In this document: positions 17,301 to 53,166 of the stretch, in pieces
Layout: every line of letters starts with the position of its first letter
How positions within the stretch are numbered: position 1 is the first letter of the stretch
From: a virus
Lineage: Duplodnaviria > Caudoviricetes
Virus record (IMG/VR): IMGVR_UViG_3300022876_000002
Length of the DNA stretch: 64,000 nt
Direction: 5' to 3' (one strand)
Position numbers and translations under genes: made by a program
The notes under the pieces: model-generated
Databases searched by the model: none
What the model was told of the DNA's origin: nothing
The model's input: only the letters and a program-made list of their open reading frames with translations

Positions 17301-19530
17301 CTCACCGTTCTTGGATAGTCGTTCTGACGATCGTCCGGACAAAGTAGACCGCATGCTTAAACTGTTGGCTGATGCTAGCACACAGGCTAAGGTACTGGAC
17401 CCCGAGAAAGAGGCTGGTAAAACCAATACTCAGACTTGGGCTAATGCAATCAGTCCACACAAAGTAGGTGGTGGGTTTACCCCACATGCTGCCAACGTCC
17501 AGCAGCCCGACCAGTACAAGAACAAGCGTGACGTCGTTATGGGTGGACAGTTCGGCACCAACGTGTCTAGCGGCGCTGGTACTGGTAACATCTACAGCAT
17601 CAATGGTAACTACGGCACCCCTGAGAACAAGTATGGGTATAAAGCCCTAACTGGTGAATCCGACACTAGCCACCTGGACATGTCCGGTGTACAGAAGGAT
17701 ACCAGTGCTAAGGACTCTGGGGTTAAGGTACCCCGTAAGCTGGCAGAGCAGTTAGTAATCCGCGAGATGCTTAAGCAGGGCTTCACTGACCCGCGAGCTA
17801 TTGCAGAGATGCTGGCACTTACCAACTACGAGACCGGTGGCTATAACAAGACCGTAGAGAACCTTAAGTACTCCGACCCATCCAGACTGATGCGGACGTT
17901 CAAGGAAGTTACTTCCCTGGCCCAAGCACAGCAACTGGTACAGATGGGTGAGGTAGCAATCGGTAACGTGGTTTACGGCGGTGGTAAAGGCAAGTCCCTT
18001 GGTAACACCGAACAAGGGGATGGCTACAAATACCGTGGTCGTGGCTTCGTACAACTGACAGGTAAGAGTAATTACGCTAAGACCGGACAGGCTTTAGGTA
18101 TTGACTTGGTTGGGAAACCAGAGTTGCTGTCTGAAGACCCTAACGTCATGGCGGCCGTTGCGGTAGACTTCTACAAGAACTCCAAGCTCTTGCAGTCGAT
18201 TACCCAAGACGGTAACTTCGGGCGTGCTGCACGGGGGCTCAATGGCGGTAATGCATTGCCCGGTATGCCTGAGCGTCACAAACTCTACCTGAGCTACTTG
18301 GATCAGTTGAGTAAAGGCGAGTTAAAAGCTGACGAAGAAGCCGCAGCTAGTGCATCTGCCGATGTGGTGGGTAGTGCATCTGCACCGACTGCTCCTCCTG
18401 ACAGTGGAGCAATGATTGGTGGTGCTGGTGGTACTCCTCCACTGGGTGCTAGCGGTAGCGGTGGTCAGTTGGATCCAAGCGGAGGAGCTGCATACGGTAC
18501 GCCAGGTACTGATCCAAACACAGGGCAACCTGGTACTTGGTCTCAGTCTGGTCCTAATGTACCGATGGGTCCTGGTGTGCAGACTGGCTCTGGCGCACTT
18601 GGTGGTGGTTACACTGCTTCGACTTACGGTGCTGGTCCTTCTGTTGACGTAGATGGGCTTAAGGTTAAATCCGCTGAAACAACTGCTGGTGGTGGGCATC
18701 ATCCTGCTATCAAACGGTTGGGCCAGTTGATTATGACCAACGTCCAAAACTTCAACAGAATCACTGCGTTGAACGACGCATGGCACAAGCACAATAAGCC
18801 AAACTCCAAGCACACCCAAGGTCTGGCGATTGACTTCACCCTGACTAACGGTGCAGCTGGTAGTGATGCCGCAGTGGCTGTTGTTAAAGGCTTGCTGCAA
18901 CAAGCTGGTTTGACTCCTAACGAGTTCCTGGTACTCAACGAGTACAAGCGGATGTCGCGTGGGGCAACTGGTAATCACGTCCATGCTGGCTTCCAATCCG
19001 TAGCTGCTGCGGACAAGTTCATGAAGGCAAGTGGCGGTAACGCTACTAACGGACAAGACACTACCGCTGGTGGTGGACCTGTACAGCCGGTTGAACAAGA
19101 AGTTACATCGCCTCCGCAACAAGGAGTAGAGGCCCAGGCACCTCGTGGTATGGAAGACCCAGCTGCTAGCCCTAGTGGCCCTGCGGTACCGGGTAAGCCA
19201 AACATCCCTGGTCCCAAGCCTCCACAATCCGGTGGTAACACTGCACCGCAAGGTGGCGGTAATCCATTCGGGACGTCTCCTGGCGCTCCTTACCAGCAAC
19301 CTAATAACGGTTCTTACCAACCGCCCGCACCGCCTGCTACAAGACAGCCTCAGGCTGCTCCTGCACCAGCCCCTGTAGACAACGGTAACGTAGAACAGTT
19401 GTTAGGAGCATTGGTTGCAGCGGTTAACCAACAGGGCGGATCCCAGTCCCAACTGTTGGCACAGATCGCTAAACTGATCGCTGAAGGTAACAAAGGAGCT
19501 AAAGATCCATCTCAACGCGTTAAGGTTTGA
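11389..19530 (+). CDS. Giant tail/tape-measure-like virion protein with C-terminal peptidoglycan hydrolases (phiKZ gp181/EL gp183 position)
   Basis: About 2,713 aa from ATG 11389 (ggggt RBS); GH19 motifs YETGG...ENL and GDGYKYRGRGFVQLTGKSNY; M15-like SKHTQGLAID...HVH; hydrophobic Gly/Ala-rich segments mid-protein; divergent from the vRNAP genes. Confidence 0.88.
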   Translation: MSDYDDFESYDNDWGDDPFEGDMDFDSDFDNPGGKKGFLRSAVSGFLDGIVERTIGSTDAKINTLQKVLPATWNPTFRNLRDLNQRRRDVMEQIKNGTFTTVQDLQYLADRAAKAVGNKLPNKISETLTDFSKRDFSDWEKTDYDRDDTDKAEGVSDEEVKALISNEDANAILTRETSKSIGRQTIGMMAEIGGRSIANIQGLNQTGMRTNQLLEHLLDFQRRVTQRNDQLMISITARQYLTSSKYYKFMEVSNHRIVTELKQIGEYVKMSDYEKTSNMQALKKSVRESVFDKAKGRFGGIADFLTERVGKDALDDNMSNVSDITSSLRMVAEMTEGMPLNVGSMLGNAAAGIFLNKLPKMIESGMAQGYIAKFKKQFPKLSKWADDAYIRLGDLGNVATYVTGNGEELANTLHRHYKHGQSELDDMTYDDYVDQLPKDKPPMPKAVWVAMKMARGMYNKGAGAIMDDMWESSYTTYNLKNRTLADGEENALWTRRSDRTLNEEIPRWFSMIHLSLEQIRTGSDDVKRLAYDYVKDDFITDKQKVATVTNAVFDRSQFSSQATSALNLAESLDKEGGGTMSAKAKQDLAYQLTRDVDRKQGFNPYNFLALEEEDGFSKKSAKQIRESIMAAFGITQNHIDEFHAGDDATRTRMLTYMPTEKGRRLLPGMADAARSLDTFMPDITANLETYRNSGFWNAMKEAGIITKSEWGGGDEVSEKKFWEVYKQYLADPEMKSSVPVPETQGPIPTRSFGTFTPNPINPLAQATVPKFTFGAAAGVAPTATTVPVKVEGFDELVKTLDGLKNFAQSMGGFGDAMKAVSGIDFQPLNTKMDLLVKNTGDLLQLAQTRNETLTKIYENQPVRKKPKDKQEEDDMRSGTQRIMDRIKEFSFQDFYNKAVDTVLKNEPLILGGLLGGLAGYALHNPKAAALIAGGAVAATAYGKIRGMAKAKTPEDNEDLYEEGSDEPLLSAKKLRDGDYYDLSKKVIIQSWKDITGSIKDIKDGTIIGARKLAGKLFTAENKEVFLSGLNKVREWISKAFRWVDPWGRAVAAKNAVTKRFFQMDVYKEGAKAPTLLGKSFDGGAYYKVGPDGKAVMLTGWNEIDGPVYDREGNMLISQEDYDRGLVTSMGVSVNKLGKLSKKFGSWGLEILKGAKDRAMQYGGAAVDKSKEVFKADYTPIINSIDRIYDLLLQHWGYAPAAMVNALTGTDGVEKPLEAEGDPETQPAPATGKKGKKKKAPKTKEDSEPDFNKGIDPDTPGPSKEEVAKREERAANPPEMRKHNFAEAIKEKIAAAYGDRPAAGDPAPEPKPGEPKERLNSLKDQEEQKEKKKAGMVQDAIIRIGESFGFGEKKPDTKRAGLFGLLGTMFGGALSVLGGISTFITKTLFSPIRMMGTFATLGIKLLPVMATGVTAIAKGLFTLLKTKSLTDAGTSVLDTIMDNKGEHPEVRKKRKEMRKEHRSKPSTKLKKAGLVGGVALAGGMAVDSMIDSGIVEEDGLVANVANVLETGAQVYAGYQLASGLAGLAGLSLPTMLGTAASAAGTGFMVAAGGALTAAGAIITSPVVLGAAAIGLVGYGAYKLFQKGKGTQLKLRLTQYGVSDVESDLAETIVKAEQMLEKYVVIGNGRASLSKEAPIEEVFRMFVPDAADKGGKAKLAEVFTWFNGRFKPVFLTYMACLDAAKFKGLQEYDESTKQEVYMVAKQAHTALGGVMPFPYTVVAKIDKSVPILGEKQTTIRVANYLTTLKTYLDRKTSKEDLQPVALPAGVKALEAEKKHLEEQLNEDGGSVAGPIRSKAKARIADIDKQLSDLNSSFKLGKQVQAVYIKDLLPDAKAMDLLTAIRLACYGNDQDIHWRIEAVLRLERYCESLFVSDGKEVVFRGDIGELFDIFRTSFRLKRDEGENWAKWFRDRFAPVMRNYVQLVNNYRKGNPGVVWKSLSVTARYEIAKALVDTQVHITSALVVPIWRVRSSPFLDSRSDDRPDKVDRMLKLLADASTQAKVLDPEKEAGKTNTQTWANAISPHKVGGGFTPHAANVQQPDQYKNKRDVVMGGQFGTNVSSGAGTGNIYSINGNYGTPENKYGYKALTGESDTSHLDMSGVQKDTSAKDSGVKVPRKLAEQLVIREMLKQGFTDPRAIAEMLALTNYETGGYNKTVENLKYSDPSRLMRTFKEVTSLAQAQQLVQMGEVAIGNVVYGGGKGKSLGNTEQGDGYKYRGRGFVQLTGKSNYAKTGQALGIDLVGKPELLSEDPNVMAAVAVDFYKNSKLLQSITQDGNFGRAARGLNGGNALPGMPERHKLYLSYLDQLSKGELKADEEAAASASADVVGSASAPTAPPDSGAMIGGAGGTPPLGASGSGGQLDPSGGAAYGTPGTDPNTGQPGTWSQSGPNVPMGPGVQTGSGALGGGYTASTYGAGPSVDVDGLKVKSAETTAGGGHHPAIKRLGQLIMTNVQNFNRITALNDAWHKHNKPNSKHTQGLAIDFTLTNGAAGSDAAVAVVKGLLQQAGLTPNEFLVLNEYKRMSRGATGNHVHAGFQSVAAADKFMKASGGNATNGQDTTAGGGPVQPVEQEVTSPPQQGVEAQAPRGMEDPAASPSGPAVPGKPNIPGPKPPQSGGNTAPQGGGNPFGTSPGAPYQQPNNGSYQPPAPPATRQPQAAPAPAPVDNGNVEQLLGALVAAVNQQGGSQSQLLAQIAKLIAEGNKGAKDPSQRVKV

Positions 19531-19536
19531 CCATTT

Positions 19537-19582
19537 TAGGAGAGGGGGCAGGGGCTTCGGCCTCTGTCCTCATCCTATTTTT
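19537..19582 (+). terminator. Intrinsic terminator (TTCG loop)
   Basis: taggagagggggcaggggc-ttcg-gcctctgtcctcatccta followed by a T run. Confidence 0.7.
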
Positions 19583-19596
19583 ACAGGTATTTACTG

Positions 19597-21759
19597 ATGG
19601 CCACGACGACTACTACCAGAGACAGGGACATCATTAGTAAGTCCTTTCGTCTCTTAACACGCGGCGTACAACCAACCGAAGTATTGGACCGGATGGATTG
19701 GGACAAGTACTTTAACGTATTCAGCAGCGCTACGGGTGACAATCGATACGTTAACCCTGTGGCGCAATCTAGCCCTTATACCGACCCACGTTACGGTCGC
19801 TTCATGCAAACCCGTGAAGGCGGTATGGGTTCTGTGTATAAAGAGTCCATTGAAGACAACGTAACCCTTTTAACCATTGTGCCTAGCGTACCGCAGTTTG
19901 CTGGTTTGCTCCAGTTCATTGCGAACATGTTCCGTCCTAGTGCTGCGATCATTGCTAACAAAGGTCGTGCACCAGGCTTGGCGTTTTACATGGCCCAAGC
20001 AGTTACGTCCATCGTGTTTATTCCCATGCAGTTGATTTCTGCTGGGGTACAGTTCCTCAACTTCTTTATGGATAACCCGGTAAACAGCTTCTGGTCTTGT
20101 AAGCCAGCAGTTGGTGCATTTACCATGGCGTCCACAGGGGTACTGAACGACCTGATGTATCGCTTGGGTTATATCGACCCACTGCTGCCTAAACGTGTTC
20201 AGGAACAGAATGACCCGCTGTACGGTCTGAAACCTGACTACGATAATACCAAAGCTATTGCTGACCTGCGTCTGCTGATTCCTGACTCCGTCAACGATGA
20301 CGGGACAGTGGACTTGATGCGTCTGGTAATGAAAGGTACTCGTAAACACCGTGTCATGCTCCGTGAGCTGGCTAAGTTGGATAACGAGACCATCCTTACT
20401 GTGGATCAGAAAGTTGCCCGTAGTCGACAAGTCCTGGAAGAAGTTGAATTCGATGCGGCTACCTGGGACGGTTCGCCTAGCCAGGATTACGTGCAACAGG
20501 AAATGAGCACGGTAGGTCGTTATCGTGAAGGTGAGGAGAACTATGTAGAGCAAGACTCCGCATGGTACAAACAGAAAGCCTATGAATCTACCAATAACCC
20601 AGAATACGGTGTAACTGGTGTCGGTAGCGTGGCTAGCAAAGATGGTCGGTCGTTAGACACCATCATGGGCGAACTTGCTACATCGAGTACTAGTGGTAGT
20701 TTCGGCACTGGTAACCCTAACGAACCAGCGGGGCGTCCTAAACCTGCTACACAACCCAACGTAGGCGCTACTGGCCAACCACAGGTGTTTTATGAAGACA
20801 ACCCTGATGATAGATCATGGGCAGGCGACATATTTGATTTGGCTCGTACTGCTGCCTATGGCGGCATGGACGGGATCACTTGGCGAGTCGATGGTAGCGC
20901 TGGGCCTACAACCGATTCATTCTCCAACTCTAAGGCTCAGTCTCCACTGGCAAGCAAGTTCAACTCCGTCGTAAAAGCGGCGAACGACTTCCGTTTTGAC
21001 ATTGCTGGTGGTGCCACAGGCGTTGATATCATCGACGGTGTGGTCAGCATGATTAAAGAGTCTGCTATCGGTGCGCTGTCCGGTAGTGTGATCGGTAACA
21101 TCCCCTTAGCGCTGACCAACAACTCGTATATCAAGATTGCCGACCACTGGGACGGTTCCACTACCAACCTGCACAAAGAGTCTTACTCGATTTTCTTCAA
21201 CTGTAACTACGCTCACCCGTATGAACAGATCATGAAAATCTGGGTACCGTTTGCTCTGTTCCTGCCGTTGGTGGCTCCGTTCACTACTGGTGGTGGTTCG
21301 TATACCTCGCCGTTCATGTGTAAAGCTTTCTGCCAAGGTCGTTCGATCATTCGTACCGGCATGGTAGAGAACGCTACCTTTACTTGGGGTGCTGGTGAAC
21401 GTGGTTGGACTCGTGATCGTAAGCCACTGAACTTACGTATCGATTTCAGCATCGTAGATCTGGACAACATTATCTCGGTTCCAATCGATCGTTCGATTAG
21501 CCTGCTGGAAGTACCAAACCTCAACGGTATTGCCAACAAGCTGTTCAACGACGACACCGGGTATAACAACTTCCTTGGTCGTGTTACTGGCGTTACGTTC
21601 CTGGACACCTTCCTTAAATACTCGCGTATGAACCGTGGTCTTACTGGCATGGCATTGGATGTGGAAACTAGCATCCGTGCAGACAACATTGCTAGCAAGA
21701 TCTCCGACTCTATCGCTGGTAGCTTCGCAACACTCTTTGCTCGCCCTATGCAGCGTTGA
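19597..21759 (+). CDS. Virion structural protein (tail tip/baseplate), phiKZ gp182-like (720 aa)
   Basis: Directly follows the giant tail gene, as in phiKZ-like phages; function inferred from synteny and size. Confidence 0.6.
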   Translation: MATTTTTRDRDIISKSFRLLTRGVQPTEVLDRMDWDKYFNVFSSATGDNRYVNPVAQSSPYTDPRYGRFMQTREGGMGSVYKESIEDNVTLLTIVPSVPQFAGLLQFIANMFRPSAAIIANKGRAPGLAFYMAQAVTSIVFIPMQLISAGVQFLNFFMDNPVNSFWSCKPAVGAFTMASTGVLNDLMYRLGYIDPLLPKRVQEQNDPLYGLKPDYDNTKAIADLRLLIPDSVNDDGTVDLMRLVMKGTRKHRVMLRELAKLDNETILTVDQKVARSRQVLEEVEFDAATWDGSPSQDYVQQEMSTVGRYREGEENYVEQDSAWYKQKAYESTNNPEYGVTGVGSVASKDGRSLDTIMGELATSSTSGSFGTGNPNEPAGRPKPATQPNVGATGQPQVFYEDNPDDRSWAGDIFDLARTAAYGGMDGITWRVDGSAGPTTDSFSNSKAQSPLASKFNSVVKAANDFRFDIAGGATGVDIIDGVVSMIKESAIGALSGSVIGNIPLALTNNSYIKIADHWDGSTTNLHKESYSIFFNCNYAHPYEQIMKIWVPFALFLPLVAPFTTGGGSYTSPFMCKAFCQGRSIIRTGMVENATFTWGAGERGWTRDRKPLNLRIDFSIVDLDNIISVPIDRSISLLEVPNLNGIANKLFNDDTGYNNFLGRVTGVTFLDTFLKYSRMNRGLTGMALDVETSIRADNIASKISDSIAGSFATLFARPMQR

Positions 21760-29576: not shown

Positions 29577-31088
29577 TTATTTCTTTTGACCCAACTCAGC
29601 CAGGTTCAATACTCGCAGGTTAGCTACTGCTGACGTATGGATGTAAATCCAATCAGTAGTCTCTACCAACGTGCAGTAACGCAGACCTTTGCTGTTACGC
29701 GTGTCTACTGCTACCCAAACCTTTACCTCGGGGTCTTCCACTGAGTTGAAGGCATTGCGCTCAGGGATGTCATAACCAACATTAATAGTCAATGGTACAG
29801 GCTTAACCGCGTTAGGGTGTTCTACCGGTACTTTAAACACTGACTTGAGTTGATTAAAGTCAGAATGCAACTTGACCTTAACGTCACCCTTCTTGTTGGC
29901 TTCCTTGGTATAGATCAAATCCGTGATCTCGTAGAACTTCAAGTAACCAAAGACATTGGACTCATCTTTAGCCTTGTACGAGTTAAGGATCACATCGAGC
30001 TCTGCCAAAGCGTCACGAATACGGTAAGACATCAACACCGGACTGATCAGTTCAATCAATACCGGCTTACCGTTGCCCTTAGTAACAGGCGACACCAAGT
30101 TGTTGCCCTCACGGATAGCAGGATGTGTGTCAACCATCCGCGCTACTTCTTTACTGGTCAGGTGGTTAAGATCACCAGCTACCAGGTAACCGTCAGGGTT
30201 GTCGATCTTGCGTCTGGTAAACTCATAGAGCTTGTCCAGCAGCGCAATCGGCTCCTTGGTGAACAATGCCGAATAAGTAACGTCGGGAGTCTGCTTACCA
30301 TAGTAGTTCTTGTCTGGCTCTACCTTACCAAACCCGTACTTACGGTACCCGTGTTGCTTATCGTAAAACTCCTCAGCACTCACGCTACCGAAATACCAAC
30401 GGCTAGCCGAGACGATCTTGTTGAAGTCCGATTCAGGGTTCTCGTAGACCTTGCGCGGGATTACATGCAAGTCGGTAGTGTTAGGTTCACCAAACAAACT
30501 GATGACCTCGGCGATCTCCAAACACTTGTGTGCTTGTTTATTACCAGTACCACCTTCCGCACTACCACTAAAGTCAAAGATAATCCTGCTGTCGGTCTCC
30601 TTGAACTTACCAATCGTAACCAAAAGCTCTTGCAGTACGTCTACATCCTTCTGCGTGAGCTCCATACGGTTGATTCGGTAACCAACCTGTACTTTGTCAT
30701 CCTTTAGCTTCCAAACCTCTTGTAGCTCCTTGTGGGGCGTAATAATGCAAAGGTTCTTATAAGGGGACTCTGGTTCCAGGTACAGTGCGACCACGGCCTC
30801 AAATGCACGCAGTACCGCCGTGAACACTGAGCGTGTGTTAGCTACTGTCAGACTAAGGATGTCGTCTACCACTACTACGGTGTTAGCGCGCTGGTTGTTA
30901 CCAGTGTAGTACCCACTTGTAGTAGCGACGTCTTTAGCCAGCTTTTTCTTGCCTTCGTTGGCGATGGTATAACTGTAACCATGTGCCCCAGCATAATTCA
31001 GGTGTTTCCTGCCTCGTTGCAAGGACCGAGCAGTCATGTAGACTACTAGGTTCTTACTGCCTTTGAGGTCTTCGGGCTTATCTGCCAT
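29577..31088 (-). CDS. RNase H-like protein (phiKZ gp155 position), catalytic residues apparently lost (503 aa)
   Basis: Retains the GAHGY, TTSGY and GNxxA family hallmarks and the size/synteny, but VVYMTA, NTRSVF, IITPH and GNKQAH stand where YTDG, NNxAE, xDS and GNxxAD are expected. Confidence 0.6.
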   Translation of the reverse strand: MADKPEDLKGSKNLVVYMTARSLQRGRKHLNYAGAHGYSYTIANEGKKKLAKDVATTSGYYTGNNQRANTVVVVDDILSLTVANTRSVFTAVLRAFEAVVALYLEPESPYKNLCIITPHKELQEVWKLKDDKVQVGYRINRMELTQKDVDVLQELLVTIGKFKETDSRIIFDFSGSAEGGTGNKQAHKCLEIAEVISLFGEPNTTDLHVIPRKVYENPESDFNKIVSASRWYFGSVSAEEFYDKQHGYRKYGFGKVEPDKNYYGKQTPDVTYSALFTKEPIALLDKLYEFTRRKIDNPDGYLVAGDLNHLTSKEVARMVDTHPAIREGNNLVSPVTKGNGKPVLIELISPVLMSYRIRDALAELDVILNSYKAKDESNVFGYLKFYEITDLIYTKEANKKGDVKVKLHSDFNQLKSVFKVPVEHPNAVKPVPLTINVGYDIPERNAFNSVEDPEVKVWVAVDTRNSKGLRYCTLVETTDWIYIHTSAVANLRVLNLAELGQKK

Positions 31089-31107
31089 TGCCGGTGCTCT
31101 TCTTAAG

Positions 31108-31139
31108 TAACCTACCCATTAAGATAACGGGTAGGGTTA
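31108..31139. terminator. Possible hairpin/terminator
   Basis: taacctaccc...gggtagggtta inverted repeat in the intergenic gap. Confidence 0.4.
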
Positions 31140-31607
31140 AAGTTTATTTGGATAGCTGGCACTACACATACGCATAAAGAACTGGTTGTTCTCCCGCAAC
31201 AACTTAGATTCCTGTAACGTACGATTTAGTGTAACCTGGATCCAGTAGTTCTCGTGGGTAAGTGCTACGTTGGATTCCAGCAGCTTGGTGTTCTCATTAC
31301 GTAACTTATTATTGGAGTCGTTGATGCTAGCGGACAGTTTGCTTATTTCCTCCGCTGCGCCAGCCATAGATTGAGGCTTAAGCAACACACCCAATTTAGC
31401 AGATACGGACTTGTAATCTGCCAATTGCGTACGCATATTTAAGTTCTCAGCCAGTAGGCTAATCACAGCAAAAACCAACACGCTAATCAGGAAAACCGTA
31501 GACTTCAAAACAGAGGTGAGTTTCGCTTCAGACGATTCACCTTTAGACATCCGTAGGAGGAATTCTATGAATCTGTCAACTAGCTCTTTTAAGAGCGTGA
31601 ACAACAT
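31137..31607 (-). CDS. Membrane protein: N-terminal TM helix plus coiled coil (156 aa)
   Basis: Hydrophobic VFLISVLVFAVISLLA segment followed by a heptad-rich helix. Confidence 0.7.
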   Translation of the reverse strand: MLFTLLKELVDRFIEFLLRMSKGESSEAKLTSVLKSTVFLISVLVFAVISLLAENLNMRTQLADYKSVSAKLGVLLKPQSMAGAAEEISKLSASINDSNNKLRNENTKLLESNVALTHENYWIQVTLNRTLQESKLLRENNQFFMRMCSASYPNKL

Positions 31608-31637
31608 ATATGACCCTTATTTACTGAGGTGTAAGTG

Positions 31638-32981
31638 ATGGCTGCTAAGAATTATTTGTCTTTCGCTGCGATAGCGGAATTCGCTAACAACGGGGTCAAA
31701 GCTGTATCACCTATTGGTGAGATCTCCAACAAATCGAAGACCTACTCCAAAGACCAGGGTATTTTCACCCTGACTGATCAAGCTTCTGCCACTGTATTGC
31801 ATAATTTCATTAGCCTGGATGGTACTACTGAGATCAGTATGCCAGTTACCATTGCTAATAAGCAACTTGAGATTAGCAACTGGTTAGTCGATCAAACCAA
31901 ACTTGGTAATATCACTGACTCCCGCCCCAACACGCTTGCACTCTTAAAGGCGCAATTCAGTTCCGGTATCGAGATCCTCGATGTCGGTGAGATGGTTACC
32001 AACAACCGTTACTACCTCCCCAGTTTCGTAACGGGTAACCATATCGTTGGTTCAGAGAAACAAACGTTTTATCTGTGGTTCGCTGACGAGTATTTCAAGC
32101 GTCAGTACCCACGCGTGGTCTTCGGTGTAGTACATCCATTAGCTCTGGCCTCCATGGACGATCTGATGCCGATGAACTACGAGCAGATGGCTGCCCGTCT
32201 GGCTCTTGAGACCCCAGACGTAATCGACAAGCGTTTGCATGCCCTCACTGACAACGCCGCATGGCCTGTTACTGACGGTACTACGATGTCGTTCCAGATC
32301 ATGGACCTGATCAACACACCTAAGTCGGTAACCGGCTGGTGGCGCTATATCTGGTGGGGTAACGGTGTCGATGCCGAAGACCTGCTGTTCGACCAGATGC
32401 GTAACGAGATCCTGGCCAACACCAAGTACACGTTGCAGCAATGGGAAGAGAAAATCCCAGATCTGTTCAACCCGATCGAGTTCTACGTTATCCCTAACTG
32501 GAACCGTTACGGCCTGACAAACAAAACCAACGGTGCGCGTGAGTACAGCCCAATCATCGATGAAGAAACCCGGCTGCTCCTCGTTAATAAATATCTGACG
32601 CCTAATATGACGTCGGCCCATGTCATAAAATCCACCCAGCACGTGCCTTTCCTGTACAAGAGTCTGGCTTGTGCGTTCGTGGCTAAGGTCAACAACAGCG
32701 ACGCTACCAAGAAGATTCTCCAGCTTTATCCTGACTACGCTCTGCGTGTTTCGACTGACTCTGATTTCGATCAGATGAACCCGGAGACCATGGAGTTCAT
32801 TCGTCAGATGGAGAACCTGCTGGCTGCTGCTGAAGTAATGACCGACGTTAGCCTGCCTTTGCCTGGCACTACTCGGGTTATTCGCTTTGGCAAGATGTAT
32901 GCTTCCAAACGTGTTGGTCGTGCGCGTTACTTGGTGCTTACCAAGTGGCAAATGATCCAGGATAAGGTGACAGGTATCTGA
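31638..32981 (+). CDS. Virion structural protein, phiKZ gp157-like (447 aa)
   Basis: gaggt RBS 7 nt before ATG 31638; synteny and size. Confidence 0.55.
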   Translation: MAAKNYLSFAAIAEFANNGVKAVSPIGEISNKSKTYSKDQGIFTLTDQASATVLHNFISLDGTTEISMPVTIANKQLEISNWLVDQTKLGNITDSRPNTLALLKAQFSSGIEILDVGEMVTNNRYYLPSFVTGNHIVGSEKQTFYLWFADEYFKRQYPRVVFGVVHPLALASMDDLMPMNYEQMAARLALETPDVIDKRLHALTDNAAWPVTDGTTMSFQIMDLINTPKSVTGWWRYIWWGNGVDAEDLLFDQMRNEILANTKYTLQQWEEKIPDLFNPIEFYVIPNWNRYGLTNKTNGAREYSPIIDEETRLLLVNKYLTPNMTSAHVIKSTQHVPFLYKSLACAFVAKVNNSDATKKILQLYPDYALRVSTDSDFDQMNPETMEFIRQMENLLAAAEVMTDVSLPLPGTTRVIRFGKMYASKRVGRARYLVLTKWQMIQDKVTGI

Positions 32982-32982
32982 T

Positions 32983-33618
32983 ATGGCATCTAACACTATT
33001 ATCCCGTCGATTGACGCACGTGGGCGCTTTGAAGCAGAAGCGCCTTTCGACCTGGTGGTTAAGCCGGAGGTTTACTACACTGTAGAGGCCATCCGCAACA
33101 TCCACGAAATGGAAGCACTTAAACTCGATCTGTTCGAGCTCGTGTTTAAGCCAGCTGGGTTCACTGCAGATACCTTCCCTGCTGCTCTGGAACGTGCACG
33201 TAAAGACGGTGCTAAGGTCCTCAGTCTGTTAGACCGGGCCGACGTAGCTACTTACGTGCTCACCAACTACCTCAAGAGCTGGCCTCTGGTAGACGGTGTT
33301 AGTTACGAGCACATGGTGATTATCGCTGACATGGGTCCTGTGCCTCCAGGCATGGCCGATATCTTGGCCAAAGAAATTGCCCATATCAAGGATCACATTG
33401 AAGCCAACGTAGGGATCACTACCACTGTTACTATTGGTACGATCCCTACTATTGGTTATGTCAGTAAGGAACAAGCCGATGCGTACGAGAACGTGCGTAA
33501 GAGCAAGATCACTGACAGTGGTAATGATGTAGCACGTATTCGCGAACTCGAAGCACAAGCTATCCGGGACCACGCGTATATCCAACAATTAGAAGCCGCT
33601 CTGGCTGCCCGCCCTTAA
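32983..33618 (+). CDS. Probable virion structural protein (211 aa)
   Basis: Co-transcribed between structural genes. Confidence 0.55.
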   Translation: MASNTIIPSIDARGRFEAEAPFDLVVKPEVYYTVEAIRNIHEMEALKLDLFELVFKPAGFTADTFPAALERARKDGAKVLSLLDRADVATYVLTNYLKSWPLVDGVSYEHMVIIADMGPVPPGMADILAKEIAHIKDHIEANVGITTTVTIGTIPTIGYVSKEQADAYENVRKSKITDSGNDVARIRELEAQAIRDHAYIQQLEAALAARP

Positions 33619-33633
33619 ACCCAGGACACTACC

Positions 33634-34809
33634 ATGGAACCAAACTTCAACGAGCTCAACAATACCGACCATGAAGACGCCCCGCACTTGTTCGAGACGT
33701 TGTCGCCAGAGTATACGGATATCCCAGACCCAGAGCACTTCGACACCATCTGTGAAGGCGCCCTGGACACCGTTAAGGGCATGGAGTCCATGTCCACCAC
33801 CTACACCAAGGCTCAGTCCTATCTGTTCGCCTGCATGTCCGCAGCAGACCATATCGACTACAAGCAACAACGTGCTGGTATGGAAGGCGGGTTCTTCTCC
33901 GCCATTGGTGATGGCCTGGGCGCTGCATGGGACTTCATCAAGAAAATGTTCACTGCTGTGTGGCGCGCGTTCTTCGGCGGTGGGGATAACACCGTAGAAA
34001 GCAAGGTCGAAAAAGCCGAGAAGAAAGTCAAAAAGGACAAGGAGGACGTACAAGAAGACGTCAAGCCTGGTAAGTCCGAGGAAGTTGTTGAGAAACAACG
34101 TAAGAAGGCTAAGGATAAAGCTAACAAGGTTAAGAAAGACCCGAAAGCTTCTTCCAGTGACAAAGCCATTGCCGACCAGATGATCAAGAAGATCGACGAA
34201 GGTAATGTCAAGTCTACTAAGCAGAAAGAAGACGATCTTAAAGTAATTAAGGAAAACTACTTCAAGATCAGCAAGGATACTCGCGAGACCATCATCAAGA
34301 ACGTTGGTGAAGCAGAGTCCCTGCGTCGTAAGTACAAAGAGTACGTCGAGAAAGACCGTTCCAGCGAAGTTACTTCTGATCGTTGGAAGAAATGCTACGC
34401 AACGTTCAAGTCTAGCGTATTTGGTAAACTGTTGGATCACCCGATTAACCAAATCGTTAAGGTCGACGCTATCAAGAACCTTGGTCAGGGCGTGGATGTA
34501 TTCAGCCAACTGGAACAAGTGCTCTCTGGCCACCGTGGTGTAGCTGAGACTATCAGCAATCAGAAAGCTACTGTTGAGTCGGAGATCAAGGAACTGGAAG
34601 AAGCCATTCGTAAGAAAGGCAAGGGTTCTAACAGTGGTGAAGTCCATGGTGAGAAATACAACACCAAAGACCAAGTCCGTGAGCGCCTGGCTTCGGCTAA
34701 AGTGGTACTGGGTATCATCAACGCCACTGCTGGCTACCAGACTAAAGCCGTGCAATCGGTAGAACGTCTGAGCGCTAACGTGAAAGAGCACTTCTGCCCG
34801 TTCATGTAA
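33634..34809 (+). CDS. Head (inner body/ejection-type) protein with a protease-cleaved propeptide, phiKZ gp162/163-like family (391 aa)
   Basis: Acidic N-terminus with GME-S and GME-G sites, then an amphipathic helix (FFSAIGDGLGAAWDFIKKMFTAVWRAFFG) and a Lys/Glu-rich body. Confidence 0.65.
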   Translation: MEPNFNELNNTDHEDAPHLFETLSPEYTDIPDPEHFDTICEGALDTVKGMESMSTTYTKAQSYLFACMSAADHIDYKQQRAGMEGGFFSAIGDGLGAAWDFIKKMFTAVWRAFFGGGDNTVESKVEKAEKKVKKDKEDVQEDVKPGKSEEVVEKQRKKAKDKANKVKKDPKASSSDKAIADQMIKKIDEGNVKSTKQKEDDLKVIKENYFKISKDTRETIIKNVGEAESLRRKYKEYVEKDRSSEVTSDRWKKCYATFKSSVFGKLLDHPINQIVKVDAIKNLGQGVDVFSQLEQVLSGHRGVAETISNQKATVESEIKELEEAIRKKGKGSNSGEVHGEKYNTKDQVRERLASAKVVLGIINATAGYQTKAVQSVERLSANVKEHFCPFM

Positions 34810-34820
34810 TAACGCAAACA

Positions 34821-34862
34821 TAACCCCTACCCCAGCCTGGTAAGGGCTTGGGGTAGGGGTTA
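34821..34862. terminator. Bidirectional terminator hairpin
   Basis: taacccctacccc...ggggtaggggtta between convergent genes. Confidence 0.8.
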
Positions 34863-34869
34863 TAACTGG

Positions 34870-36513
34870 TTACGCGTCGGATTCATCCTTACCAGCCGGT
34901 TCATCATCCACTACCGGAGTAGGGATATCACTTACCTTGATCTGACGGATGCTACCGATTGGGATACCGTCTTTGAGGTCGGCTACCACACGGTTGGCAT
35001 ACGGACGCAGGTATGGAGACTTGATACCGAACATGTAAGCGTAGATGATCTCTACCATACGGTCGGTGTGTACGTCGAATACCTTCTTACGGAAGTTCAG
35101 TTCATCCTTGACCAGAGGGATGGCTGGAGAACCATCTTCAGGGTACTCGTATACACGCCAGCTGTTGAGGTCGAGACCGATGTTACCACCATGCTCGTGC
35201 AAGGCCGTCATAACGTCGTTAGCGACCTTTTCCACGTAACCCTGTACATCGCGTGGGCTGATCTGGTAAAGCTCCTTCATGAAGTGGCTAGAGGCCAACA
35301 GACGGGTCTTAACAACCTTGTCGAATGCTTCCTCGGCATAAGCACAGTTTGGCAGCGCTTTGAGGGACTCTTCGATCAGTTGGTCAACCCACTGGCTAAC
35401 CTTGGTCAGCTTACGGACAGCAACCAGTACATCGTTACCCAGGTGCGACCACTCAGCCAGATCGATTGGACGGTCACCCAGGCTGTACTCACCGTTGTCA
35501 GGCAGACGACCAGGTACACGATCCAGACCGATAACCAAACGGGTAAGTGTGTCGTTACCTTTGAACACCAGCATCAGAGCATGGTCGCGTACGGTAACGT
35601 GTGGGGCAATACGCTCAGCTTGCTTGGTAGCAATGGCGATGAAGCGATCGAAACGACCATTGAAGGCAGCGATTACGTCGTCAGTACGTTTGAAGTCACC
35701 ATTGAGCATGTCATCCCACTTGTGGGTTGGCTCGATTGGACGAAGCCAGCTCAGAGGCCACTCACGAGAAAGCTGAGTGATCATTTTCTTGTTACCGCGA
35801 GCGATCATGCCTGGAGAGTTGTTATCCTCACGGCACCAGTCACCAGCAGTGCGTTGACGAACTGGATTGGTAAGACCGTCGTACCACATGCTGATAAAGA
35901 AGTCGAAACTGTCAGCGCGCAATACGTAAGTCATCGGGCTGATGTGATCACGCTCGAAACGGATGTAGGTAACTTCGGTGTCACCTTGGAAACCGTTGTA
36001 GGTCATCACACAACCCATTGCCGGCACACCTGGATTGACCGAGGTGAAGAAGTTATGCAGGGCAATGGAGACCTTGGTGTAGTCGTGCTGCTTCTCGCCG
36101 TGGATGTTTCGTTGCTCGGGGAAGTCTTCTGGGCCGTTGTCCCGTGTCAGATTAACCTTAAAACTAATGTCGGGAGCGAACGGGTAGTAGTGGTTGAAAC
36201 TACCAAAGTCCATGTTGCTCACGAAGTACGGGTCAACATACTCGTATACATTACCCGCCCATTCGGATGCAGGTTTACCAAGCACATCGTCAAGTTTGGA
36301 TACCCCCACTTCCTGAACTGGTTCTGGACCTTGTTCGGTAAACAGTAAAGTGTCACCCGGTTCTACAGCACCAGAATGATCAGTAGTTCCGACATAGCTA
36401 GGAATCCCGCCGTAGCCTTCATTAATGATCGGCCGGGTGTTCACATCCAAGGCTTGTACAAACGGATCGTCCTTGGACAACAGGACATCGTTACGGCCAG
36501 TGGTATCACTCAT
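34870..36513 (-). CDS. Large hypothetical protein (547 aa)
   Basis: aagga RBS before ATG 36513 (MSDTTG), overlapping the upstream stop; no motif recognised. Confidence 0.7.
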   Translation of the reverse strand: MSDTTGRNDVLLSKDDPFVQALDVNTRPIINEGYGGIPSYVGTTDHSGAVEPGDTLLFTEQGPEPVQEVGVSKLDDVLGKPASEWAGNVYEYVDPYFVSNMDFGSFNHYYPFAPDISFKVNLTRDNGPEDFPEQRNIHGEKQHDYTKVSIALHNFFTSVNPGVPAMGCVMTYNGFQGDTEVTYIRFERDHISPMTYVLRADSFDFFISMWYDGLTNPVRQRTAGDWCREDNNSPGMIARGNKKMITQLSREWPLSWLRPIEPTHKWDDMLNGDFKRTDDVIAAFNGRFDRFIAIATKQAERIAPHVTVRDHALMLVFKGNDTLTRLVIGLDRVPGRLPDNGEYSLGDRPIDLAEWSHLGNDVLVAVRKLTKVSQWVDQLIEESLKALPNCAYAEEAFDKVVKTRLLASSHFMKELYQISPRDVQGYVEKVANDVMTALHEHGGNIGLDLNSWRVYEYPEDGSPAIPLVKDELNFRKKVFDVHTDRMVEIIYAYMFGIKSPYLRPYANRVVADLKDGIPIGSIRQIKVSDIPTPVVDDEPAGKDESDA

Positions 36514-36880
36514 CGTCTTTTTCCTTAGCAACGGTAAACGGGGTTGGGTACAAAGTATATTTTACATCAGGTTCTTTATGCAGCGGGCGAATAACGATGT
36601 TCTTGCTATCGTCTCGATTGGCAATAACAGCCAAAGCCATTTCAGCCGGATCCCATTCATTCAGTGCGGCGATATCTTCTTGACTAATCCAGTACTCAAA
36701 GAAACCACGGTGCTCGGTATGTACGGTAAACATCATGCCTCGGAGTGGTGTCCCTAACACACTATGTACCGCCATCTTGGCGGACATGGTTTTAGTCGCA
36801 CCAATACCTTGACTAAATAAAGCATGCCCAAACAGAATACGGAAGTTATCCATTTCCAACTGATCAGGATATACCATCAA
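36506..36880 (-). CDS. Hypothetical protein (124 aa)
   Basis: gaggt RBS; coupled to the downstream gene. Confidence 0.65.
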   Translation of the reverse strand: MMVYPDQLEMDNFRILFGHALFSQGIGATKTMSAKMAVHSVLGTPLRGMMFTVHTEHRGFFEYWISQEDIAALNEWDPAEMALAVIANRDDSKNIVIRPLHKEPDVKYTLYPTPFTVAKEKDDE

Positions 36881-36901
36881 TACAACCTCTAAAAAGGACT
36901 T

Positions 36902-37738
36902 GTGGTTATTATGGACTCTAAACTATACAATATGTCTACGATTAATAAATACACTGCACGCCCAGGTCTGGCAATGCCGCTTCACACCAGAGTAAAAATC
37001 CCTGGTGGTTGGACCACTTTAGGTTTACTGAAACTCAATGACTTGGTAGTTACTCCGGATGGCAACTACGTACCCGTTACTGGTATTTACCCCCAGGGGG
37101 TCACCGATAACTACAAGTTCCTGTTCGAAGACGGCAGGGAAGCCGAGTCTCATCCACTACACCAGTGGGCGGTTTACGAAGACAACCAGCTTACCCCCAT
37201 GGTCACTACCACCTTGGATATCTTGAACCACTTTAGTGACTTCGAGTACAGTATTCCTCTGGTAGGTCGCCTTGGTGTACAGCAAGCTTGCTTGAGTGAC
37301 CAAGAGCTAATAGATATAGCTCACCAGTTATTAACTGGCATAATCACGTTCCCCAAAGTGGAAGAGCTGCATTACGAAGACCGGTTAACGATCGCCCTAA
37401 CAATGATCGAATACCAGGATGCCACCCACACTGACAATGGCGTCTTGATCTCCACTACGTCAGACACAGCCGCATACACCCTGAGAGACCTGATCTGGTC
37501 ATTAGGTGGGATTGTGTATATGGAAGCACAGGACCCATATATCCTGCGTGTGCTGCAACGAGATATCCGTAACCCAGAGAACCTGGTTAGTGATACCATA
37601 CATCAGCGCACCAAGTCACTGAAACTGACAGGCATTACCAGAGACGACCCGGTAGAAACTGTGTGCATTAGCATCGGTGACGACCAAAAGCTTTATGTGA
37701 TTGGTAGTTACCTAGTCACGCATAACGGCGAATGCTAA
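36902..37738 (+). CDS. Stand-alone intein-like Hint protein with class-3 WCT signature and a degenerate LAGLIDADG remnant
   Basis: Block A AMPLHTRVKIPGGWTTLG..L.D.V.TPDG; block B DGREAESHPLHQW; block F VCISI; block G LVTHN, then GEC-stop; true start may be 36902, 36911 or 36932. Confidence 0.85.
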   Translation: MVIMDSKLYNMSTINKYTARPGLAMPLHTRVKIPGGWTTLGLLKLNDLVVTPDGNYVPVTGIYPQGVTDNYKFLFEDGREAESHPLHQWAVYEDNQLTPMVTTTLDILNHFSDFEYSIPLVGRLGVQQACLSDQELIDIAHQLLTGIITFPKVEELHYEDRLTIALTMIEYQDATHTDNGVLISTTSDTAAYTLRDLIWSLGGIVYMEAQDPYILRVLQRDIRNPENLVSDTIHQRTKSLKLTGITRDDPVETVCISIGDDQKLYVIGSYLVTHNGEC

Positions 37739-37759
37739 ACAAAAATAAACCATTAGTAG

Positions 37760-37791
37760 CTTACCCTCTAGCCCTAGGGCTAGAGGGTAAG
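37760..37791. terminator. Bidirectional terminator palindrome
   Basis: cttaccctctagccctagggctagagggtaag is a perfect palindrome between convergent genes. Confidence 0.8.
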
Positions 37792-37793
37792 TA

Positions 37794-37952
37794 TTACGGG
37801 TATTTCTCAAAAGCACGTACCAAGTTTTCGAGGATCATGATTTGGTTATCTACCAAGTACACTAACTCGTCTTCCGGATGCAATTGCTCTTTCTGTCTAA
37901 CAGCGCCCTCCAGTAATTGGAGAGCTTCCTGCTTCGTCATTTTAACGCGCAT
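37794..37952 (-). CDS. Small helical protein (52 aa), absent from the ORF track
   Basis: ggagag RBS; MRVKMTKQEALQLLEGAVRQKEQLHPEDELVYLVDNQIMILENLVRAFEKYP*. Confidence 0.65.
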   Translation of the reverse strand: MRVKMTKQEALQLLEGAVRQKEQLHPEDELVYLVDNQIMILENLVRAFEKYP

Positions 37953-37970
37953 GGCGCTCTCCCATCCTGG

Positions 37971-38321
37971 TTAGGGTGATGGCTCGTTGGTAAGGTCTAC
38001 AGACACACAACCAGTTGTATTGATTGTTAACCCGCCGTCTTGGGAAGTCAGTGCATTTGCAGTGCGACTCAACACGACGTGCTTAGAAACAAATCTGTAA
38101 GCACCTTTAATCGACGGACTAAGCTGCATAGCCTCTTCAGTCAATTCCTGGTAACGTTTGTACATTGCCAGACCAATAGCCCGTTCGTTGGAACCGACAG
38201 CAGCATTAAGATGAAGATCACGGTAATCCAGGTATTCTTCCATTTTGGCGTCAGCTTGCTTAAGCAGATCGGTGATCTTCTTCCGCAAAGCCTTATCGGC
38301 AAAATCAACTACAACACCCAT
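37971..38321 (-). CDS. Small protein with N-terminal motif MGVVVDF (116 aa)
   Basis: Start at ATG 38321 via TAATG overlap with the upstream stop. Confidence 0.7.
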   Translation of the reverse strand: MGVVVDFADKALRKKITDLLKQADAKMEEYLDYRDLHLNAAVGSNERAIGLAMYKRYQELTEEAMQLSPSIKGAYRFVSKHVVLSRTANALTSQDGGLTINTTGCVSVDLTNEPSP

Positions 38322-38515
38322 TACAACTGCCAATGCGCTTCCAGCGCTTCGATCAACTCTTCAAAACCATCGCACGGATCAGTGAGCTGCTCTTCGCCAT
38401 CCCAGGCAACCCACTTGTCAGGGATCGGATCGTAACCCATATCGAGGGAAACGTGGTTCTCACGAGAGTATTGTTGGATTGCGGCAAAACGATCTTCCAA
38501 GGATTTCTTAACCAT
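38321..38515 (-). CDS. Small hypothetical protein (64 aa)
   Basis: TAATG-coupled on both sides. Confidence 0.7.
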   Translation of the reverse strand: MVKKSLEDRFAAIQQYSRENHVSLDMGYDPIPDKWVAWDGEEQLTDPCDGFEELIEALEAHWQL

Positions 38516-52207: not shown

Positions 52208-52600
52208 ATGATGCGATTGTTAAAAGACGAACCGCGATTTGAGGATGTACCTCATGTCGTGCTACGTCTCCCCATGTCCAGTGCAAAGGCCAACAAGCCC
52301 ATTCAGGTACTTGCGGATCGCACCGCGTATCTGAAGGAATGGTTGGAACGGCTACAGTTAGGATCAGGCGGTAAGGGCATCCATTTTATTGGGACATTGC
52401 CTGACCAAGAAGCCTTAGCTGGTATTGATACCGCCGCTCTTCCGGATGGTAGTGCTTACTTTGTAGGTCCTACCATTGCTGTATGGAATCTGTCGGAATG
52501 GGTCGTATCGGAGTCACTTCAGGGTAAACCTGGAGAAGGCATCGACGAACTCAATGACCTTGATTTACTAACTGCCTATCAAACAGCTAAACAAGGGTAA
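52208..52600 (+). CDS. Short paralogue of the long tail fibre N-terminal domain (130 aa)
   Basis: LADRTAYLKEWLE..GTLPDQEAL..AYFVG..VWNLSEW..SLQG aligns with fibre LDARTRWLKEQLE..GYLPDEDTL..CYFVD..AWNGTEW..SLRG. Confidence 0.7.
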   Translation: MMRLLKDEPRFEDVPHVVLRLPMSSAKANKPIQVLADRTAYLKEWLERLQLGSGGKGIHFIGTLPDQEALAGIDTAALPDGSAYFVGPTIAVWNLSEWVVSESLQGKPGEGIDELNDLDLLTAYQTAKQG

Positions 52601-52605
52601 ATACC

Positions 52606-53166
52606 ATGTCCATTTCTGCAAATCTGATTCTGCTCGCCCAGGCACTCGGTGCCGACGTCAAAGCCCTGACCGCCGCCCAAGGTGACCTGGCTTCCCTTCC
52701 AACCACCAACAAGACCAGCCTGGCTGCCGCCCTGGCTGAAATCCACGGCCTGGTCCAGGCTGGTGGCGCTCAGATCGACGACGCTGCCGGTAACGGTGAC
52801 GTAGACGTCGTCTGGTCGGCTGACAAGGTGTTCGACAGCATCGAAGCTGCCAAGACCGCTGTCAAGAACGAACTCCTGGACGGTGCCGGTGGTGCATATG
52901 ACACCTTCAAGGAACTGCAAGACCTCCTGGTTGGCCAGGACGATGCCGTTGCGGCTCTGACTGCTCTGATCGGCAATGCCGTGCGCTTCGACCAGCCTCA
53001 GGTCCTGACCCCCGAGCAACGTGATTTCGCTCTTGGCAACATCGGGGCTGCAAGCAACGTCGAATTGACCGCCCTGTCCGGTCAGGTCAACGCGATCGAC
53101 CAAGCCATCGGCGACGCCGACGCTGACTTGGTTGCCGCCTACAACGCCGCCAAAGCTGCGGAGTAA
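52606..53166 (+). CDS. Ala-rich helical virion (fibre/decoration-like) protein (186 aa)
   Basis: GDLASLPTTNKTSLAAAL..EI and YDTFKEL motifs common in phage fibre/head-decoration proteins; visibly GC-richer than its neighbours. Confidence 0.65.
   Translation: MSISANLILLAQALGADVKALTAAQGDLASLPTTNKTSLAAALAEIHGLVQAGGAQIDDAAGNGDVDVVWSADKVFDSIEAAKTAVKNELLDGAGGAYDTFKELQDLLVGQDDAVAALTALIGNAVRFDQPQVLTPEQRDFALGNIGAASNVELTALSGQVNAIDQAIGDADADLVAAYNAAKAAE

Follow-up and report, generated by a model that had tools for sequence, protein, structure and literature searches.

Positions 36902 to 37738 of the 64,000-nucleotide stretch of Caudoviricetes DNA analysed here (IMG/VR record IMGVR_UViG_3300022876_000002; the whole stretch is referred to as the window) carry, on the plus strand, an open reading frame (ORF) of 278 amino acids, counted from a GTG and closed by a TAA stop, which consists almost entirely of an intein. 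Sequence comparison identifies this ORF as the in-place remnant of an SNF2 helicase gene, of which the ribosome-binding site, the start, two scraps of the N-extein, a full class 3 intein and three further codons are left, and as a vertically inherited phage gene under strong purifying selection. On balance, we lean towards the reading that this remnant is selected for a job of its own, one that would still need the intein chemistry.

A class 3 intein in the place of an SNF2 helicase

Residues are numbered throughout from the GTG at 36902. The ORF reads ...TARPGL/AMPL...SHPLHQW...ETVCISI...YLVTHN/GEC-stop, with the intein borders marked by slashes. Ala24 is intein residue 1 and directly follows ...RPGL, block B contains His87-Gln-Trp89 (His B:10 and Trp B:12), Cys255 within ETVCISI is block F:4, Thr273-His274-Asn275 form block G, and Gly276 is the +1 residue of a Gly-Glu-Cys tail that ends at the stop. 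A preliminary description, made from the letters alone, had read almost the whole ORF as an intein with block A at Ala, the Trp-Cys-Thr (WCT) triad, an intact terminal His-Asn, short terminal peptides and Gly rather than Cys, Ser or Thr at +1, and on all these points (A24, W89, C255, T273, H274, N275, Gly276) the sequence bears it out. The real start is probably the ATG at 36911, giving a 275-aa protein, because the orthologues in the clade alignment begin with MDSK or MSSK and a likely ribosome-binding site, AAGGA (36894-36898, plus strand), lies 12 nt upstream. The N-peptide is then 20 aa long (36911-36970; 23 aa if counted from GTG) and is followed on the same strand by the N-terminal half of the Hint (splicing) domain with Ala24 and block B (36971-37264), a middle domain of residues 122-238 (37265-37615), the C-terminal half of the Hint domain with Cys255 and block G (37616-37726) and the C-peptide of 3 aa with TAA (37727-37738), the final Cys of which is invariant within the clade.

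Searches of the ORF protein against Pfam and NCBIfam gave no match even at an E value of 10, PADLOC gave none either, and the PHROGs matches were only to intein-bearing families, covering residues 7-107. A tblastn search against 50,697 phage records gave matches in 204, of which 44 cover at least 80% of the query. The best of these were inteins in the SNF2-type helicase of Pseudomonas phage EL (gp166) and its kin, with 35% identity to the EL gp166 intein over residues 19-275 (E about 1e-36). A family profile matches solved inteins of class 3 and gp41-1 by sequence (E 1.9e-06 to 6e-04). The AlphaFold model of the ORF (mean predicted local distance difference test score, pLDDT, 89.1; predicted template modelling score, pTM, 0.86) has a Hint fold and superposes on class 3 DnaB inteins. 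Its structure matches include gp41-1 (6riz_A, Z 19.1, 127 aligned, root-mean-square deviation (rmsd) 1.8), MchDnaB-1 (6riy_A, Z 18.8), the class 3 split intein 6zgq_B (Z 17.2) and PI-SceI (1jva_A, Z 20.1, 254 residues, rmsd 3.1). Only at residues 1-16 does pLDDT fall below 50, too low for the model to bear on a separate fold of the N-peptide.

Among 5.8 billion proteins, with candidates restricted to 152-487 aa, eight clusters of 272-298 aa share 62-99% identity with the ORF protein; with their members they comprise 22 distinct sequences, all full length (268-298 aa), and the exact protein of the window occurs on 50 contigs. A tree built from 70 intein segments places the nine aligned rows in a single clade (Shimodaira-Hasegawa-like approximate likelihood ratio test, SH-aLRT, 100) nested among helicase-embedded inteins, and its sister group consists of the inteins of 927-aa helicases. 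The class 3 signature has been described as the absence of a nucleophile at residue 1 together with Trp B:12, Cys F:4 and Thr G:5 (PMC3196547). All nine clade rows have Ala24, with no Ser, Thr or Cys at residue 1, and the triplet W89, C255 and T273 is invariant both in these 9/9 rows and in the 37/37 rows that include embedded relatives. H87, H274 and N275 are kept as well; A24, H87, W89, C255, T273, H274, N275 and C278 are identical throughout the nine rows. Two features of a splicing class 3 intein are absent. The +1 residue, which is Thr in 20/20 embedded inteins checked, is Gly in eight of the nine rows and Ser in one (G/S, L/R or S among all orphans), and instead of an insertion in a joined host protein there are a 20-aa N-peptide, a 3-aa tail and no exteins.

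The position of the ORF points to its origin. Window positions 29577-36531 reproduce the gene order that in EL extends from gp171 to gp167. The ORF stands at the place of gp166 and is oriented divergently to the gp167 homologue (553 aa, 34870-36513, minus strand). EL gp166 is a 940-aa helicase with its intein at residues 145-413, in the Walker A loop (...AKPGSGK/AMPL...VTHN/TFTS). A closer relative is provided by L007, a 233-kb metagenome contig with an intact 955-aa helicase (...VGSGK/AMPY...VTHN/TFTA), the intein of which is 58% identical to the ORF. The gene order in L007 is the gp167 homologue, a small divergent ORF, the helicase and a 361-aa gene, and then the minus-strand genes also found behind the ORF in the window. 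The small divergent ORF corresponds to the 124-aa neighbour at 36506-36880 (minus strand), which thus adjoins an intact helicase in one phage and the orphan intein in the other, and lies outside the gene under study.

The borders of the remnant can be traced by alignment. The stretch AAAGGACTT upstream of the start, with the likely ribosome-binding site, is common to the ORF and the L007 helicase gene. Within the N-peptide, SKLYNMSTINKY aligns to helicase residues about 31-44 (as GKLYNTSLINKY in the protein P0011, 9/11 identical), RPGL aligns to the P-loop GSGK, and the KLYN codons at window 36920-36931 are identical at 12/12 nucleotides to positions ~9644-9655 of L007, in its helicase gene. 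The gp166 and L007 helicase exteins found no match in any frame of the window (other matches E 1.2 or worse), and neither the exteins nor Helicase_C matched G001, a 99-kb contig rated 41% complete in which the ORF is 100% identical. The ORF lies at the helicase place, its N-peptide consists of helicase scraps and no other helicase match was found in these sequences, which shows that nearly all of both exteins was deleted in place. The claim of the preliminary description that the intein has no host protein therefore holds for the window and for G001.

One candidate for a helicase elsewhere in this phage was P0071, a 680-aa intein-free protein with an intact GSGK/T site. It probably belongs to another phage: P0071 is 79% identical to the helicase of Erwinia phage RisingSun, whereas the RNA polymerase of the phage studied here is ~52% identical to that of RisingSun, and P0071 occurs on 3 contigs, the ORF protein on 50. 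It is recorded on a 243,621-nt contig, and contigs of this phage measure 243,585-243,724 nt. More generally, helicase proteins of the family group at 680-714, 912-959 and 989-1044 aa, and 54 metagenomic helicase clusters of 912-957 aa bear class 3 P-loop inteins. A second class 3-like intein was observed at positions 19040-19915 of G001 (~15 kb before the window start), in a 1100-aa frame.

Selection was assessed by codon analysis of one strain pair, the window and L006, a 243.6-kb contig which is 97-98% identical to the window around the ORF. Between the two ORFs 34 of 825 nucleotides differ, but only 2 of 275 residues (S269K, E277D). This corresponds to a non-synonymous rate (dN) of 0.0063, a synonymous rate (dS) of 0.1775 and a dN/dS of 0.036, and the steps divide into 30 synonymous and 4 non-synonymous ones (binomial P for so few of the latter, 1.2e-15); the neighbours have dN/dS values of 0 (124-aa ORF, 5 differences) and 0.087 (553-aa ORF, 30 differences). 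The 553-aa neighbour also served as a rate yardstick over larger distances, in pairs formed through equal-sized contigs that were assumed to be the same contig. Identity to the window was 89% for the ORF and 87% for the neighbour on 242,048-nt contigs, 78% and 69% on 7,751-nt contigs, 73% and 68% on 239,532-nt contigs, and 65% and 51% on 76,966-nt contigs. The ORF thus co-diverges with its neighbour, and more slowly, which indicates that the gene travels with the genome. The evolutionary expectation of the preliminary description, an extein-less orthologue at this locus with dN/dS below 1, is borne out by the 22 full-length sequences and the dN/dS of 0.036.

These data bear directly on the possibility, named in the same description, that the ORF is a relic in decay, an intein turned pseudogene once its host gene had died and headed for deletion. 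The precedent is Arth_1007 of Arthrobacter sp. FB24, a class 3 intein of phage origin between extein scraps of 52 and 14 aa, described as the first decayed intein pseudogene (PMC3196547). The tiny exteins and the lack of a +1 nucleophile are common to both, and one short lineage of the family presented below ends in THS. Arth_1007, however, lacks Cys F:4 and His B:10 and neither spliced nor cleaved in the tests reported for it (PMC3196547), while the ORF keeps the full catalytic set and is present in many phage genomes. With orthologues that are neither sporadic nor frameshifted nor neutral (22/22 full length, proteins below 152 aa being outside the search), a dN/dS of 0.036, slower evolution than the neighbouring gene and the same stop in independent assemblies, decay is highly improbable and we reject it.

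An assembly or annotation artefact, with a frameshift, misassembly or split gene concealing that the ORF continues into exteins, deserves hardly any credence. Contigs of several runs do break at a palindrome just downstream, but the same stop and flanks recur in the window, in G001/L005, in L006 and in contigs of four runs, all independent assemblies. In addition, the frame after the stop closes after 10 codons in L006, the flanking genes are on the other strand, and the search of all window frames revealed no extein-like sequence.

The LAGLIDADG-fold middle domain

Residues 122-238 are modelled as helix-helix-strand-strand-helix-strand-strand, with one copy of the alpha-beta-beta-alpha-beta-beta-alpha LAGLIDADG fold in the chain. 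Modelled alone, the domain has a pLDDT of 85.7, and LAGLIDADG proteins make up ten of its first 13 fold matches. At the top stands the PI-SceI nuclease domain (Z 8.2, 104 aligned, rmsd 3.2), followed by TliVMA (7.8), WhiA (7.4, 6.9 and 6.7, with 83 aligned at 7.4), PI-TkoII (6.3), PI-PfuI (6.1), I-DmoI (6.1), I-Tsp061I (5.8) and E-DreI (5.1). These Z values are moderate, and the weight is carried by the agreement among the matches. No LAGLIDADG family model matches the ORF (Pfam, 0 families at E up to 10); PF14528 is carried by the larger inteins of some relatives. The preliminary description had seen here a LAGLIDADG motif that had lost its acids, extending to LIWSLGG. The fold agrees with this by model, but there is a single unit, and LIWSLGG is the second helix of that same unit.

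The loss of the acids also needs qualification. The canonical catalytic position is occupied by Gln or Leu172 in the clade, as claimed, but an acid, Asp173, stands at the helix tip one residue on, where relatives have a capping Gly. Asp173 is present in 12/12 clade rows and in 0/58 embedded inteins. It was considered as a regained catalytic residue and rejected, as it represents one substitution on one stem branch with the register off by one; because it is a single change on one branch, we draw nothing firm from it. The net charge is -17 for the intein part (pI 4.7) and -8 for the middle domain, which speaks against DNA binding and for a protein partner. Being acidic and without the canonical acid, the domain is a poor nuclease candidate, and the earlier wording of a dead nuclease is roughly right if it is taken to mean one acidic LAGLIDADG-fold domain lacking the canonical acid.

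The domain is kept in all 58 embedded relatives, none of which is reduced to a mini-intein, and its WSLGG is nearly invariant family-wide. Within the window clade, mean pairwise identity reaches 0.82 in the N-terminal Hint half, 0.70 in the middle domain and 0.74 in the C-terminal Hint half, compared with 0.75, 0.50 and 0.79, respectively, in the embedded sister group. Because the middle domain reaches 0.70 in the clade against 0.50 in the sister group, it appears, if anything, more tightly constrained once the gene stands alone.

Such conservation would suit a domesticated, non-catalytic scaffold as well, in which the acidic Hint-plus-LAGLIDADG body binds a protein or mimics DNA, the catalytic residues merely hold the fold and the terminal peptides are harmless leftovers. 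We regard this as unlikely, yet as an explanation to be taken seriously. The charge and pI, the universal retention of the middle domain with its WSLGG and a Gly at +1 that may block the reaction are all compatible with it. The same holds for the presence of WhiA, which has the LAGLIDADG fold but does not cut, near the top of the fold matches; this degenerate LAGLIDADG transcription factor resembles the ORF domain in having the fold without catalytic acids and a non-nuclease role, but it has two units plus a helix-turn-helix and binds DNA, whereas the ORF domain is single and acidic, so that the likeness is one of fold alone. A scaffold has more difficulty with the termini. The yeast proteins HO and WHO, extein-less stand-alone intein derivatives retained by selection or homing, are described as having lost motif G, as carrying a zinc finger and as active LAGLIDADG nucleases (PMC7282813). 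The ORF shares with them only the stand-alone state without exteins: its motif G (THN) is kept, as are Cys F:4 and the Gly at -2, no zinc finger or other domain is added after THN, and its nuclease-fold unit is single and acidic. An invariant final Cys in a tail of 3 aa is likewise difficult to account for as a leftover.

The protein was also weighed as a stand-alone nuclease for homing or competition. As such it would dimerise via the single LAGLIDADG helix and cut helicase alleles that lack the intein in co-infecting phages, either spreading itself or keeping competitors out; an intron nuclease is reportedly used in competition between jumbo phages, according to one paper. Intein-free helicase alleles with an intact GSGK/T site do exist among relatives, and the clade-specific Asp173 at the helix tip could be seen in this light. 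Moreover, dS in the ORF reaches 0.18 (0.12 if its last 20 codons are left out), 2-3 times as high as the 0.064-0.067 of the neighbours, and breakpoints between strains border the 3' end of the ORF, features described as typical of nuclease genes (PMC10448857). The acidity of the domain, its single unit and the alignment of Asp173 to a helix-capping Gly rather than to the canonical catalytic position count against cutting. The gene co-diverges with its neighbour and shows no sign of horizontal movement, and the missing exteins would leave little homologous sequence on its flanks to support homing into a helicase gene. We therefore consider a nuclease role very unlikely.

Strains also vary around the ORF. 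Directly after the ORF, 1.13-1.16 kb is present or absent (window 37739-37759; L006 10838-11965), and 16 of the 34-35 nucleotide differences between the window and L006 ORFs fall within the last 60 nt (37678-37738), where only 2 residues change. The 3' end of the ORF looks like a recombination boundary. The additional segment holds a co-oriented 360-aa gene in L006 and in DNA run X10, of the phrog_21850 family and a paralogue of the window gene at 33634-34809 and of EL gp165; the window and runs X1, X5 and X12 are without it. The ORF, described earlier as standing alone on the plus strand, does so in this strain, but not in L006 and X10, where the 360-aa gene lies between it and the palindrome. 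The palindrome itself (37760-37791), situated between convergent genes, had been called a perfect palindromic terminator. It is a perfect palindrome, with a 14-bp stem (fold -33.7 kcal/mol, z -6.4), but it has no T-run and is absent from the predictions of the terminator scan.

Two further variable segments were noted. Window 33900-35000, which includes the 3' half of the 391-aa gene at 33634-34809, diverges from L006 by 11-38% against a background of 1-2%, which suggests a swapped or hypervariable segment. At window 37962-38317, 354 nt are replaced by 328 other letters in L006, in X10 and in one X5 contig, with the result that an unrelated 107-aa ORF takes the place of a 120-aa ORF (37971-38333). 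No function was assigned to the neighbouring genes by PHROGs, and a search of the phage collection for near-identical DNA found no match.

Other orphan inteins and the loss of the helicase

An exhaustive representative search (5,589 matches at E ≤0.001) revealed three more short proteins. P0149 has 279 aa and the tail LCIN, with RCID in its cluster mate P0296. P0150 has 287 aa (MLNLFS...VGNGK/AMPL...THN/SFT) and is known from a single 2,061-nt contig, while P0151 and P0297, with 278 aa, end in THS without a tail and are found on short contigs. P0150 and P0151/P0297 may be genuine orphans. In all four short lineages Gly stands at -2 and Ala1 is preceded by at least 14 residues, although the intein Met2 could have served as a start. 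In two of them the tail is very short and includes a conserved Cys, at +3 in the window clade (GDC, GEC or SDC) and at +2 in the P0149 lineage (LCIN or RCID).

P0149 is encoded on G002, a 236,430-nt viral contig rated 100% complete, where it adjoins homologues of gp167, gp168 and gp169. The C-extein of the L007 helicase (522 aa) has no match in G002, but it finds its counterpart in 3/3 complete control genomes (56%, 49% and 34% identity). A full helicase query matches only inteins in G002, and a P0071 query matches nothing there. As the C-extein query fails in the complete G002 and succeeds in the controls, there is at least one complete phage genome in which the intein occurs without a helicase. 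The P0149 ORF occupies positions 12-851 of G002 (L013 8001-8840) and so ends 11 nt from the edge of a contig rated complete and linear; the contig break beside it may reflect strain variation or a repeat. As in G001, a class 3-like intein is also present in G002, where it lies at 52540-52713 within a frame of 1212 aa.

The distribution of the short proteins suggests that the helicase was lost more than once. The intein tree requires four changes, and its well-supported branches force at least three. The helicase-bearing L007 is closer to the window than the P0149 phage is, in the intein (58 against 42% identity) and in three flanking genes (gp167, 51 against 37%; gp168, 75 against 69%; gp169, 77 against 72%). 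Because the intein tree and these flanking genes agree in this placement, two independent losses of the helicase are likely, though not proven.

Putative chemistry and significance of the orphan intein

In the class 3 scheme as described, Cys F:4 attacks the bond before residue 1 and holds the N-extein as a thioester (PMC3196547). If the remnant is selected for a job that still needs intein chemistry, Cys255 would attack the Leu23-Ala24 bond in the same manner and take the 20-aa N-peptide onto its thiol. The usual hand-over to the +1 residue, however, cannot happen, because +1 is Gly. The acyl group would then be lost to water or handed to another nucleophile, for which the invariant C-terminal Cys278 is a candidate acceptor. 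Asn275 would cyclise and free the tripeptide. The preliminary description had proposed release or transfer of the N-peptide via the block F Cys thioester, or an action in trans on other inteins, both of which are suggestions drawn from the conserved residues. The product would be the same acidic Hint-plus-LAGLIDADG-fold protein that splicing releases in the helicase-bearing relatives, and the charge of this mature protein would favour a protein partner over DNA. Relative to the EL-like P-loop inteins of SNF2 helicases, with which the ORF shares whole-length homology (35% identity with EL, 58% with L007), Ala1, His B:10, Trp B:12, Cys F:4, Thr-His-Asn, the single LAGLIDADG-fold insert and the genome position, the differences are the missing exteins, Leu instead of Lys at -1, Gly instead of Thr at +1 and an end three codons past the intein.

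In Hedgehog and in bacterial intein-like (BIL) domains, part of the splicing chemistry serves cleavage or transfer. There the first residue, a Cys or Ser, acts as the nucleophile that makes the (thio)ester of the N-terminal junction, and a large functional domain, N-terminal or C-terminal, is processed. The model of the ORF matches these Hint folds (1at0, Z 16.7; 2lwy, Z 16.4; 6tmm, Z 15.3), but its residue 1 is Ala, its putative nucleophile is the internal Cys F:4 and its cargo would be 20 aa; the likeness is one of fold alone.

Several points weigh against a role that depends on the chemistry, or against parts of the history in which it is set. In the class 3 intein Bvi IcmO, as reported, a +1 Ala mutant alone left precursor only, and N-terminal cleavage appeared only when Asn G:7 was changed too (PMC5222942); Gly at +1 may accordingly stall the reaction instead of cleaving. 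The core catalytic residues could be conserved for folding, and 47% of all columns are invariant in the clade anyway. The conservation of the N-peptide could reflect a promoter of the divergent gene in the same DNA, as the stretch encoding KLYN is A+T-rich and lies 40-75 nt upstream of the start of that gene. The P0151/P0297 lineage ends in THS, so the C-terminal chemistry is not kept everywhere. With regard to the losses, an approximately unbiased (AU) test does not reject the window clade and P0149 as one group (p 0.165), and since G001 covers 41% of the genome, with ~59% unseen, a helicase may lie elsewhere in this lineage. The stretch is contained in 17 RNA-labelled soil runs, but these contain phage contigs of 60-237 kb, so DNA carry-over is possible.

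Transcription and transcript ends are not readable from the four runs examined, which consist of Logan contigs of up to 237 kb. The metatranscriptome-labelled soil runs X1, X5 and X12, which cover window 35500-38500 and include phage contigs of 63-237 kb, may represent DNA carry-over or near-complete transcription, and every one of their assemblies breaks at the 32-nt palindrome (37760-37791). A 1.5-4 fold difference in depth between adjacent contigs in two RNA runs was not counted as evidence.

A bolder variant gives the tail Cys the central role. The excised intein would be a working protein in all EL-like jumbo phages and the helicase a mere carrier, deleted at least twice after it had become dispensable while the intein had to stay, and the C-terminal Cys (+3; +2 in the P0149 lineage) would take the N-peptide from Cys F:4. 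We regard this as unlikely. If it were true, the gene would yield, besides the mature intein protein, a 23-residue peptide in thioester-activated or ligated form, or a target tagged with the N-peptide. This would be both a novel Hint-domain reaction and the first case of an intein whose own function can be demonstrated.

In titles and abstract openings of the literature, supplements being outside this scope, we found no description of an intein kept under selection after the loss of its host gene. The common view of inteins is that they are parasites, which persist only because they are hard to remove precisely and reside in essential host genes. A useless intein freed from its host would tolerate any deletion, stop or frameshift, yet this orphan stays intact. 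It therefore comes close to a natural experiment, indicating that an intein can have a value of its own, and the question is directly testable on a small, soluble-looking protein. If the chemistry is active, the gene would encode a natural class 3 Hint enzyme that acts on a 20-residue peptide, which would be of interest for protein engineering. For the jumbo phages themselves, the finding means that a widely conserved SNF2 helicase is dispensable in some lineages.

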